From Actinoplanes sp. NPDC049681 (lineage in GTDB: Bacteria > Actinomycetota > Actinomycetes > Mycobacteriales > Micromonosporaceae): DNA of 32,000 bases. The position numbers and the translations under genes were made by a program. Of this stretch, positions 13,723 to 32,000 are shown one piece after another (position 1 is the first letter of the stretch; each line of letters opens with the position of its first letter). The notes below the pieces were generated by a model. It searched no databases. It saw only the letters and a list, made by a program, of their open reading frames with translations, and was not told the origin of the DNA. Where the stretch lies: NCBI RefSeq assembly GCF_044465265.1, contig NZ_JBITLP010000001.1:1-32000 (forward strand), in the 5' to 3' direction.

Positions 13723-13795
13723 GCCCTCATCGTCTAGTGGCCTAGGACGCCGCCCTTTCAAGGCGGTAGCACGGGTTCGAATCCCGTTGGGGGTA
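13723..13795 (+). tRNA. tRNA-Glu (anticodon TTC)
   Basis: The cloverleaf can be folded by eye: acceptor GCCCTCA / TGGGGGT, T-arm ACGGG-TTCGAAT-CCCGT, anticodon loop CTTTCAA. No CCA is encoded. Confidence 0.95.
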
Positions 13796-13844
13796 CGGAC
13801 CGACCTCGGTCAGAGCACGTGGTAAGAATGAGCAACATCAGCAA

Positions 13845-13921
13845 GGTCCTGTGGAGCAGTTGGAGTGCTCGCCGCCCTGTCAAGGCGGAGGTCGCGGGTT
13901 CAAGTCCCGTCAGGACCGCCA
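13845..13921 (+). tRNA. tRNA-Asp (anticodon GTC), CCA encoded
   Basis: Acceptor GGTCCTG / CAGGACC, anticodon loop CTGTCAA, T-loop GGTTCAAGTCC, discriminator G, then CCA (13919-13921). Confidence 0.95.
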
Positions 13922-13952
13922 GTGCCCAGCCGCGCGGAGTTTCATGCGGCAC

Positions 13953-14029
13953 GGCCAGGTAGCTCAGTTGGTACGAGCGTCCGACTGAAAATCGGAAGGT
14001 CGGCGGTTCGACCCCGCCCCTGGCCACCA
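13953..14029 (+). tRNA. tRNA-Phe (anticodon GAA), CCA encoded
   Basis: Acceptor GGCCAGG / CCTGGCC, D-arm GCTCAGTTGGTACGAGC, anticodon loop CTGAAAA, T-loop GGTTCGACCCC, discriminator A, then CCA (14027-14029). Confidence 0.95.
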
Positions 14030-30250: not shown

Positions 30251-30466
30251 ATGGGGCGCGGCCGTGCTAAGGCCAAGCAGACAAAGGTGGCCCGGGAGTT
30301 GAAGTACCACTCCCCGAACACCGACCTCACCGCCTTGCAGCGCGAACTGGCGGGTGCTGGTAAGTCCGACCATCACTTCGACGACGACGACGACAACTTC
30401 GTCGACGACGAGGATGACGACGATCTGGACGACGAGCCCGACCGTTGGTCGCCTTCGAGGCGCTGA
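30251..30466 (+). CDS. DUF3073 family small protein (basic N-terminus, poly-acidic C-terminus)
   Basis: MGRGRAKAKQTKVARELKYHSPNTDLTALQRELAG is the conserved actinobacterial DUF3073 N-terminus as I recall it. It is followed by DDDDDNFVDDEDDDDLDDE. Confidence 0.8.
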   Translation: MGRGRAKAKQTKVARELKYHSPNTDLTALQRELAGAGKSDHHFDDDDDNFVDDEDDDDLDDEPDRWSPSRR

Positions 30467-30480
30467 CCCGTATTGCACAG

Positions 30481-30502
30481 AGCACGCGGCTTCCCGCGTG
30501 CT
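30481..30502 (+). terminator. Hairpin terminator after the DUF3073 gene
   Basis: AGCACGCGG CTTC CCGCGTGCT is a perfect 9-bp stem with a 4-nt loop, followed by TCCGTGTGT. A second inverted repeat, CATGATGCCC (30531-30540) / GGGCATCATG (30558-30567), follows. Confidence 0.5.
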
Positions 30503-30705
30503 TCCGTGTGTCGCGGTCGTTCCGGCAGTTCATGATGCCCACGCAGCGTGATCGCGCGGGCATCATGTTCTGCTCGTAGTCCTTCACCCCTCCACCGCGC
30601 CGACGGCGTGGCCCTCCGGATGCCCTTCGCAGGCCCCGGGTGCCTTTCGCGAGCGCGGGTGTCCCCCGTGGTCGCGGCGCCCTATCGCGGGCCCGGTGCT
30701 CTCTT

Positions 30706-30933
30706 GGGTGCGGGCCGCGCTTCGTAGGACGCTGGAACGCGAGGCCGGGATGGCCCTGGCTGGTGCGGGCCGCGCTTCGTGGATGCTGGCGCCACTTTGT
30801 GGGTGCGGGCCGCCATCGCGGGCGCCTGGGTGCGGGCCGCCATCGCGGGCGCGTGGGTGCGGCCGCCATCGCGGGCGCCTGGATGCCGGCCGCCATCGCG
30901 GGCGCCTGGATGCCGGCCGCCATCGCGGGCACC
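30706..30933. repeat. Tandem repeat array: five head-to-tail copies of a 27-bp unit (30801-30933), preceded by two diverged half-related copies
   Basis: The units are GGGTGCGGGCCGCCATCGCGGGCGCCT (30801-30827), a near-identical copy (30828-30854), a 26-nt copy lacking one G (30855-30880), and GGATGCCGGCCGCCATCGCGGGCGCCT twice (30881-30933). The related copies GGTGCGGGCCGCGCTTCGTnGGAnGCTGG start at 30707 and 30762. Confidence 0.85.
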
Positions 30934-31167
30934 GGTCGGGGCCTGAGCTGCCATGGCATGCCCTGACGACCCTTGCTCCTCTGCGGCGCAGCTGGTCATC
31001 CCGGGCGGCATCACGGTGGTGATTCGGCCGCCGACAGCGCCTTCAGGCATGTCCGGCCTCGGCCGCACGATGGCGCCTCCGATCCCGGGCGCGGGTGGCG
31101 GCTCTCGCATGTCCAGATTCGGTCAGCGACGGCGCCCGCCCCCGGCCGCCGTCGCCGCCGGGCCCGC

Positions 31168-31392
31168 TCAGCGGGGCCGGTTGTTCCAGTTGTAGAACGT
31201 CGGGATGTTCTCGAAGTGGTTCCAGGCGCAGACCGCCGACCCTTCCCCGGCCGCCGTCTCCTCGCGCTGCCGCCGCGCCTCGTCCGCCTCCTGGATGAGG
31301 GCGGCCAGACCCGTACGGGTGTCGCGCACCCGCGCCGTCACGGGATCCGTCTCCACGCGGTCAGACGGCCGTGGGCTCGTGATCTCGGGCAT
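31168..31392 (-). CDS. Candidate RiPP precursor peptide (74 aa) with an aromatic/Asn-rich C-terminal core
   Basis: MPEITSPRPSDRVETDPVTARVRDTRTGLAALIQEADEARRQREETAAGEGSAVCAWNHFENIPTFYNWNNRPR. Of 74 codons, 68 end in G/C. A GGAGGGAG Shine-Dalgarno sequence (31409-31402) lies 9 nt before the ATG. The ORF overlaps the last 32 nt of the rSAM/SPASM gene. Confidence 0.6.
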   Translation of the reverse strand: MPEITSPRPSDRVETDPVTARVRDTRTGLAALIQEADEARRQREETAAGEGSAVCAWNHFENIPTFYNWNNRPR

Positions 31393-32000
31393 GGTCCAGC
31401 ACTCCCTCCAGTAGGCGAATCTTGCTGTTGCGGCAGTGGTCCGTGATCGTGACATCGAACCGGCCGCGCTCGAAATAGCGGTTGGCCGCGTGGGCGCCCC
31501 CGCAGAAACCGAAATAGGGGCACTGGGCCCGGCACGCCTCCACACCGTTCAGGAACTCGCGGATCCACGGCGTCCCCGTCGCCGCGGCGAGGATCTCCGC
31601 GAGCGGGGTGGCGAGCACGTTACCGCTGCTGAAGTCGCCGTACCGGGCGTCGGAGAAGCCGGCGAGCTCGGGCGAGAGCAGGACCACGCTGCCGTCGTGC
31701 GCCACGGTCGGGATCGGATCGAGGCGCCGGGGCAGCACGTCGTCCGCCGTACCGTCGAGGACCGCCGCCGTGTAGCGCAGCGACCATTCGATTTCGCGCA
31801 GGTGGATCCGCGGATCGCGCCGCCAGGCGCCGACCAGCTCGGCCCAGAAGGCGGTCACGTCCTCCTCCGGGTGCCGGTTCGCGCGGACGTTCACGCCCTC
31901 CAGCTCCTCGACGTTGATCCCCAGCACGTCGCAGCCGAGGTCGAGGAAGTAGTCGTACAGCTCGGTGGCCAGCCCCGGCAGCGGCCGGCCGACCACGCAC
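31361..32000 (-). CDS. Radical SAM/SPASM-domain peptide maturase, C-terminal part only (5' end beyond the window)
   Basis: The C-terminal Cys cluster GVEACRAQCPYFGFCGGAHAANRYF ... TDHC is SPASM/twitch-like. The upstream part, LGINVEELEGVNV, resembles anSME/cyclophane-maturase-type enzymes. The reading frame is open to the window edge. Confidence 0.8.
   Translation of the reverse strand, partial: CVVGRPLPGLATELYDYFLDLGCDVLGINVEELEGVNVRANRHPEEDVTAFWAELVGAWRRDPRIHLREIEWSLRYTAAVLDGTADDVLPRRLDPIPTVAHDGSVVLLSPELAGFSDARYGDFSSGNVLATPLAEILAAATGTPWIREFLNGVEACRAQCPYFGFCGGAHAANRYFERGRFDVTITDHCRNSKIRLLEGVLDHARDHEPTAV

Follow-up and report, generated by a model that had tools for sequence, protein, structure and literature searches.

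In the mechanism described for triceptides, peptides that bear three-residue cyclophanes, a hydrogen is abstracted at an aliphatic residue, and addition to the aromatic ring two residues upstream follows (PMC12257519). Each cross-link changes the mass by -2 Da, as described for minviopeptin, an unrelated triceptide from Mucilaginibacter (PMC12912966). The enzyme OscB joins Phe to Asn, and Trp through its C7 to Asn or Asp, in each case at the beta-carbon of the Asn or Asp (PMC11002830). ChlB, in turn, is described as a radical S-adenosylmethionine (SAM) multiple cyclophane synthase by Ruel et al. 2025, as cited in PMC12912966. Here we examine a gene pair assigned to a related family, amcB-amcA, that lies at one end of a stretch of 32,000 nucleotides from Actinoplanes sp. 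NPDC049681 (contig NZ_JBITLP010000001.1, positions 1 to 32,000), hereafter the window. An initial annotation, made from the letters of the sequence, had presented the pair as a radical-SAM maturase and a small precursor peptide of a candidate new class.

The amcB-amcA gene pair and its family assignment

The shorter gene, amcA, occupies 31168..31392 on the minus strand (ATG at 31392, stop TGA at 31168-31170) and encodes a 74-aa precursor peptide, MPEITSPRPSDRVETDPVTARVRDTRTGLAALIQEADEARRQREETAAGEGSAVCAWNHFENIPTFYNWNNRPR. The peptide matches NCBIfam model NF041722 (phane_AmcA_3a, "multiple cyclophane-containing RiPP AmcA", RiPP standing for ribosomally synthesised and post-translationally modified peptide) over model positions 1-58 of 58, with 111.2 bits and an E value of 2.7e-32. 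The equivalog cut-off of this model is 65 bits, and AmcA exceeds it by 46.

The longer gene, amcB, is annotated as a cyclophane-forming radical-SAM peptide maturase, and its 3' part fills 31361..32000 on the same strand (212 codons plus stop TGA at 31361-31363). Its frame runs uninterrupted between the window edge and that stop; the N-terminal portion of about 155 codons, including the CX3CX2C motif of the SAM cluster, lies beyond the edge, and the window covers 212 of about 367 residues. The fragment scores 273.4 bits (E value 2.7e-81) against NF041718 (rSAM_phane_AMC, AmcB) over model positions 158-361 of 362, and the next family trails by 172 bits. The curated cut-off of NF041718, 425 bits, refers to the whole protein. 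A full-length ortholog from Actinoplanes sp. NPDC051475 (locus L001), whose residues 156-367 are 98% identical to the fragment, reaches 521.4 bits and lies above that cut-off.

Homology searches returned 1032 homolog clusters for AmcA and 625 enzyme clusters for AmcB, and the homologs in RefSeq and UniRef bear the names AmcA and AmcB. Pfam family PF28164 (AmcA_3a) is found on all 120 AmcA homologs listed of the 1032 clusters, and the closest among those listed show 97% identity and are RefSeq proteins already named AmcA. We consider the gene pair to be an ordinary copy of the catalogued amcB-amcA cassette, formed by a multiple cyclophane-containing RiPP and its dedicated radical-SAM maturase, with a probability of roughly 0.88. 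The AmcA/AmcB pair as such is already known, being covered by two curated NCBIfam equivalogs, one Pfam family and routine RefSeq names. Standard NCBI annotation would name both genes correctly, and the locus is one more ortholog in a family of more than 1000 sequence clusters. The proposal of a precursor accompanied by a triceptide maturase was thus right in kind, as indicated by the NCBIfam names, by GrrM/OscB as the nearest other enzymes, by a fold match to anSME and ChlB, and by the constant adjacency of the two genes.

The small open reading frame (ORF) was described correctly from the outset, and every figure given for it was reproduced. Its Shine-Dalgarno sequence GGAGGGAG, read from the sequence at 31402..31409 on the minus strand, is located inside the amcB coding sequence and is separated from the ATG by a 9-nt spacer, TGCTGGACC. 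The two genes overlap by 32 nt (31361-31392). In amcA, 68 of the 74 codons (92%) have G or C at the third position, compared with 66% and 55% G+C at codon positions 1 and 2; the third-position value (GC3) of the amcB portion in the window is 0.92. The start codon also stands. The ATG at 31392 is the true start of amcA because GC3 in this frame jumps there from 0.65 upstream to 0.92 downstream, and because 75 of the 77 distinct AmcA orthologs begin with MPE. The Shine-Dalgarno sequence inside amcB, together with the overlap, suggests that translation of amcA is coupled to that of amcB.

Two annotation artefacts are associated with this arrangement. The longest ORF in the amcA frame starts at GTG 31545, with 51 open codons before the ATG, inside amcB, and ORF callers can yield from it a 125-aa product (31168-31545, minus strand). 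A metagenomic entry of 413 aa (P0144) is a frameshifted AmcB-AmcA fusion.

A scan of one genome per species gave 249 confirmed loci, and our comparisons use the best 80 of these 249, which come from 80 species of Micromonosporaceae (genera Actinoplanes, Paractinoplanes, Couchioplanes, Krasilnikovia, Winogradskya, Pseudosporangium, Micromonospora, Plantactinospora, Verrucosispora and Asanoa). The initial annotation had proposed a survey of co-occurrence of peptide and maturase: amcB adjoins amcA in 80 of 80 loci, the AmcA match beginning about 32 nt before the amcB stop in nearly every case. The small ORF, which had been deemed very likely to be translated, is conserved in all 80 related genomes, and across 57 distinct DNA versions of its last 22 codons V54L is the only amino-acid change. 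Since these versions differ synonymously save for V54L, the comparison constitutes direct evidence that AmcA is translated and under very strong purifying selection. A chance ORF was rejected on account of the synonymous-only variation in the core codons of amcA.

The AmcA core and the reaction expected of AmcB

The AmcA leader (residues 1-52; 31237..31392, minus strand) combines variable sequence with a conserved amphipathic helix motif. Identity in the leader ranges from 60 to 97% among orthologs; the motif G28-L-x-x-L-[LI]-x-E-A-x-x-A-R-x-x-R-x-E45 is conserved in the 77 distinct orthologs, and L32, A39, R40 and R43 are invariant. The core comprises residues 53-74, AVCAWNHFENIPTFYNWNNRPR (31171..31236, minus strand) and contains the candidate cross-link triads. 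Within it, no substitution is seen in the C-terminal 20-mer CAWNHFENIPTFYNWNNRPR (residues 55-74) among 77 distinct peptides from 81 genomes. The four aromatic-X-(Asn/His) triads pointed out initially, WNH, FEN, FYN and WNN, are all present, at residues 57-59 (W57-N-H59), 60-62 (F60-E-N62), 66-68 (F66-Y-N68) and 69-71 (W69-N-N71).

An AlphaFold2 model of AmcA shows a helix at residues 17-49, with a mean predicted local distance difference test score (pLDDT) of 89-92 for residues 21-40. The unmodified core was modelled as a beta-hairpin (strands 53-58 and 63-68, turn E-N-I-P) at a moderate pLDDT of about 70; if so folded, the WNH and FEN triads would lie on the opposite strand to FYN and WNN.

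When 50%-identity representatives were searched exhaustively, 26 clusters matched, and most of them retain the same core despite strongly diverged leaders. A few variants were seen. P0146, whose C-terminus reads ...FEDAFPTFYQFSNRPR, is nearest to the sister model AmcA_3b and has no Cys; P0122, from a metagenomic cluster, has Ser instead of Cys55. The triads common to the 3a and 3b-like forms are FE[ND], FY[NQ] and [WF]xN. Because they are shared, these would be the most likely ring sites as judged by sequence, and WNH would be an extra candidate in the 3a form.

Rare departures from the usual layout were also observed (L031 6001-6234, P0122, P0121 and P0140). Besides the replacement of Cys55 by Ser, the C-terminus of one species is lengthened by a Gln (NRPRQ), and some precursors carry Gly/Asp-rich insertions of 40-50 residues between the leader helix and the core. 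In addition, one of the 26 clusters, P0138, a 678-aa repeat protein from a metagenome, has eight repeats of about 85 residues, each with ACSWEYWKNLPTLSSWH, which resembles the AmcA core pattern C-x-W-x-x-[FW]-x-N-x-P-T-x-x-x-W. As a relative of AmcA it was judged a chance match, weak in each repeat and with a score inflated by summing.

On the side of the enzyme, comparison with models of other maturases, which had also been proposed initially for FxsB, GrrM, XyeB, DarE and PF13186, left the AmcB model as the one that fits. The full-length ortholog aligns end to end with GrrM/OscB (TIGR04261) at 230 bits, below the cut-off of 310. Scores for the remaining families are lower and likewise fall short of the respective cut-offs: 112 bits for DynA (NF041298; cut-off 450), 92 bits for the YhhB model, 80 bits for FxsB (TIGR04269; N-terminal core only, cut-off 370), 66 bits for DarE (NF038005; cut-off 650) and 44 bits for XyeB (TIGR04496; cut-off 450). 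The peptide has no FxSxx end, as remarked initially, and the enzyme is not an FxsB. Models of sactipeptide and ranthipeptide maturases score far lower than GrrM/OscB, and a sactipeptide reading was rejected on these enzyme scores.

The view of AmcB as a SPASM-type enzyme held in one respect and failed in another. Its C-terminal domain (residues 300-367; 31361-31560 in the window) aligns over the whole length with the GrrM/OscB radical SAM/SPASM model and is homologous to the C-terminal domain of GrrM; however, the Pfam SPASM model (PF13186) gave no match to AmcB even at E <= 10, and four cysteines are found in place of seven. A general Pfam scan of the enzyme fragment likewise yielded no match. 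The canonical seven-Cys SPASM motif is CX9-15GX4C...CX2CX5CX3C...C. Nine cysteines are invariant in 62 AmcB orthologs, namely C19, C23 and C26 (CX3CX2C), C102, C178, C311, C315, C321 and C344, and the amcB segment in the window holds CX3CX5C...C (C311, C315, C321 and C344 of the ortholog) together with His325. The full SPASM set is absent in the 62 orthologs, as these have CX3CX5C and one distal Cys and lack the upstream Cys pair. The invariant His325 occupies the place of the fourth Cys of the CX2CX5CX3C block, a position deduced from the spacing of the motif rather than from an alignment with a solved SPASM protein. This arrangement suggests that AmcB may keep one auxiliary [4Fe-4S] site and have lost the other, and a single site would explain why the NCBI name omits "/SPASM". 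With such a reduced auxiliary-cluster domain, AmcB would be a convenient minimal system for studying cyclophane formation.

To examine the fold, an ortholog with 93% identity was modelled with AlphaFold2 (pLDDT 75, predicted template modelling score 0.78). The best matches of the model are anSME, with a template modelling (TM) score of 0.71, and the ChlB-ChlA complex, with TM scores of 0.69-0.70, over the full length. By sequence and fold, anSME is the best match among solved structures. The ortholog model has an anSME/ChlB-like fold.

By analogy with OscB, XncB and ChlB, a radical mechanism can be outlined for AmcB. AmcA would be made by translational coupling to amcB, through the overlap and the internal Shine-Dalgarno sequence, and its conserved helical leader would be bound by AmcB. 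The [4Fe-4S] cluster held by CX3CX2C would then cleave SAM to give a 5'-deoxyadenosyl radical, and this radical would act on the third residue of an aromatic-X-X triad, taking a hydrogen from its beta-carbon. Attack of the carbon radical on the aromatic ring two residues upstream, followed by re-aromatisation with the electron leaving via the C-terminal auxiliary cluster, would yield a three-residue cyclophane, at -2 Da each. The invariant 20-mer offers WNH, FEN, FYN and WNN, and the process might be repeated at several of these triads. We likewise infer the number and positions of the AmcA cross-links, the single auxiliary cluster, any later proteolysis or export, and the biological role.

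Some features of the pair raise the possibility of another reaction. Cys55, a residue to which no role has been assigned, recurs in 77 of 77 Micromonosporaceae peptides, and Y67-N-W69 is a triad of the aromatic-X-aromatic type, as used by darobactin-type enzymes. AmcB might, then, catalyze a different or additional reaction, either a thioether at Cys55 or a darobactin-like ether or C-C link at Y67-N-W69, in which case the name "multiple cyclophane" would describe the product only partly. The rank of DynA as third-best enzyme model and the unusual auxiliary-cluster region of AmcB also point in this direction. However, the best model outside the Amc family, GrrM/OscB, is a C-C cyclophane former that aligns over the full length, whereas the models for sactipeptide and ranthipeptide maturases score far lower. 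Moreover, the Ser at position 55 in P0122 and the lack of Cys in the 3b-like P0146 indicate that the Cys is dispensable in some relatives. We hence regard another reaction as improbable.

Several observations count against the reading of the pair as a cyclophane-forming AmcA/AmcB cassette and must be set beside the family scores. The cyclophane chemistry of the AmcA/AmcB family rests here on the name chosen by curators and on homology, and neither "AmcA" and "AmcB" as RiPP terms nor the core sequence appear in any paper of the searchable open-access literature. The window is devoid of the N-terminal half of the enzyme, with its SAM-cluster motif. As AmcB has neither the canonical seven-Cys motif nor a Pfam SPASM match, it may handle redox steps differently from OscB or ChlB. 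No protease or exporter gene is found near amcBA in relatives, and a released mature product is not evident. Lastly, an invariant core is atypical for RiPP antibiotics.

The suggestion that the peptide might represent a precursor class not yet described, outside every catalogued family, did not survive. The core is unlike the Xye, Grr and Fxs precursors and unlike the darobactin and dynobactin cores, its string is found in none of the open-access papers searched, and a Pfam scan gave no match for the AmcA peptide, with a release that predates PF28164. However, AmcA is a full member of both NF041722, which it passes by 46 bits, and PF28164, present in a newer Pfam release; RefSeq proteins with 97% identity are named AmcA; and the enzyme is AmcB by NF041718. 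A new class is accordingly very improbable. Least credible of all is an anaerobic sulfatase-maturase homolog that acts on a sulfatase, with the small ORF as an incidental neighbor, an alternative raised initially and not borne out: anSME is the best solved-structure match and its model (TIGR03942) gives 99 bits on the radical-SAM core of the AmcB ortholog, but this score is far under the cut-off of 349 and confined to the N-terminal core, no sulfatase gene is present in the amcBA neighborhood (purF, purM, DUF3073 and vdh are the neighbors), and the peptide gene is conserved alongside that of the enzyme and varies in its core by synonymous changes alone.

Chromosomal neighborhood and possible role

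The order purF-purM-amcB-amcA, followed by DUF3073 and vdh on the opposite strand (convergent), is found in 79-80 of the 80 loci; vdh encodes a Glu/Leu/Phe/Val-type dehydrogenase. The window contains the same right-hand side of the locus, with DUF3073 and vdh, in reverse orientation. A protease, a transporter or a second maturase had been expected upstream, but none is found near amcBA in the loci of relatives, where purM and purF occupy that place. Across the 80 loci, identities to the reference are 76-100% for AmcB and 83-100% for PurM, and the two vary together, as would be expected under vertical inheritance.

Hairpins in the purM-amcB gap lead us to think that amcBA is probably transcribed apart from purFM, or attenuated. 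In many Actinoplanes-type loci (L003 4775-4809; L010, L011, L013, L048 and others), a conserved hairpin of 13-16 bp, GATCCGYGTGTGYCGATG...GGCACAYGCGGATC followed by TTT, lies about 115-150 nt upstream of amcB, a region outside the window. Micromonospora loci have a different strong hairpin immediately before an AGGAGGG site upstream of amcB. Downstream of the amcA stop there is a G+C-rich hairpin (31121..31160, minus strand; RNAfold) without a T tract, which might mark the end of the transcript. The stem is long, with -48.9 kcal/mol for 31080-31167 of the minus strand (RNAfold), and about 70 nt of the region are 85% identical in the closest relative. A pattern scan detected no terminator at 31121..31160, and the promoter and terminator pattern scan of 30400-32000 as a whole found nothing.

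The setting of the cassette admits a speculation on its role. The product of AmcA may be a fixed, lineage-wide physiological molecule of Micromonosporaceae, such as a peptide-derived cofactor, a metal-binding factor or a developmental signal, and not a variable antibiotic. We propose this tentatively, and with more doubt than conviction, for four reasons: the 20 core residues do not vary across 80 species, while identity in the leader falls to about 60%; the two genes keep their place in the core genome, with purM on one side and DUF3073-vdh on the other; neither a protease nor an exporter accompanies amcBA; and the maturase appears to have lost the first of the auxiliary-cluster sites that SPASM domains have. 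A triceptide-type precursor core that is frozen across a bacterial family, and in a housekeeping neighborhood, points to a conserved cellular role. Bioactivity has not yet been established for any triceptide (PMC12257519). The less ordinary features of the locus are its cofactor-like invariant core, its fixed position between purM and DUF3073, the lack of accessory genes and the reduced auxiliary-cluster domain.

Other observations concern the DNA around the pair. The spacer between DUF3073 and amcA contains, at 30762-30930, a tandem array of a 27-nt unit, TGGGTGCCGGCCGCCATCGCGGGCGCC (4.9 copies, 94% matches), beside a degenerate 20-nt array. The array has no counterpart in the closest relative, where the spacer measures about 215 nt, compared with about 700 nt here; this repeat expansion is seen in the present genome only, and spacer length varies widely among genera. 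At 30467-30560, the first 50 nt or so past the DUF3073 stop are 85-96% identical across many genera, which is unusual for intergenic DNA. This stretch, which may be a terminator or a 3'-UTR (untranslated region) element, includes a hairpin, GCACGCGG-CUUC-CCGCGUGC; the z-score of the 101-nt fold is -2.3. Finally, an Rfam scan of the window found three tRNAs only, consecutive genes at 13723-14026 on the plus strand (RF00005, 63-71 bits), which are unrelated to amcBA.

Comparison with described systems

Short peptides with an invariant C-terminal core and an adjacent radical-SAM enzyme, vertically inherited and highly conserved, are also found in PqqA/PqqE and MftA/MftC. The likeness to AmcA/AmcB is one of pattern only, and no homology is seen beyond the radical-SAM superfamily; those pathways are completed by accessory genes, which are absent at amcBA.

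DarE and DynA are homologous radical-SAM enzymes that act on Trp/Asn-rich cores, and the dynobactin core also starts with WN. Darobactin and dynobactin clusters are, however, found in Gram-negative bacteria, include transporter genes and yield antibiotics that target BamA, whereas amcBA has no such context. The FxsB/MscB enzymes (TIGR04269), with their FxSxx-COOH peptides (TIGR04268), resemble AmcB in being actinobacterial and in forming three-residue cyclophanes. MscB links Phe to the beta-carbon of Ser, and its peptides differ from AmcA, which ends in ...WNNRPR and not in FxSxx.

ChlB/ChlA (PDB 9GM3 and 9GMC) shares with anSME the best fold match to the AmcB model, at an identity of only about 21%. 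ChlB requires a leader and introduces several cyclophanes into a single peptide. It is discussed under Morishita et al. 2024, a work whose title refers to fused radical-SAM and alphaKG-HExxH domain proteins; AmcB, with 367 aa, is without such a domain.

GrrM/OscB, the enzymes of cyanobacterial triceptides with Gly-rich-repeat precursors, are the closest family to AmcB other than its own. As in the OscB system, several aromatic-X-X triads are found on one precursor, and the residue pairs joined by OscB match FEN, FYN and WNN of AmcA. In contrast with GrrM/OscB precursors, AmcA has no Gly-rich repeats, and its core is invariant instead of repetitive or variable. The NCBI labels differ too: GrrM/OscB are "radical SAM/SPASM" proteins, and AmcB, with its four C-terminal cysteines, is "radical SAM" only. 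When the comparison is made with the AmcA/AmcB family itself, nothing of substance differs here, and a few leader substitutions separate this AmcA from the nearest RefSeq entry (97% identity).

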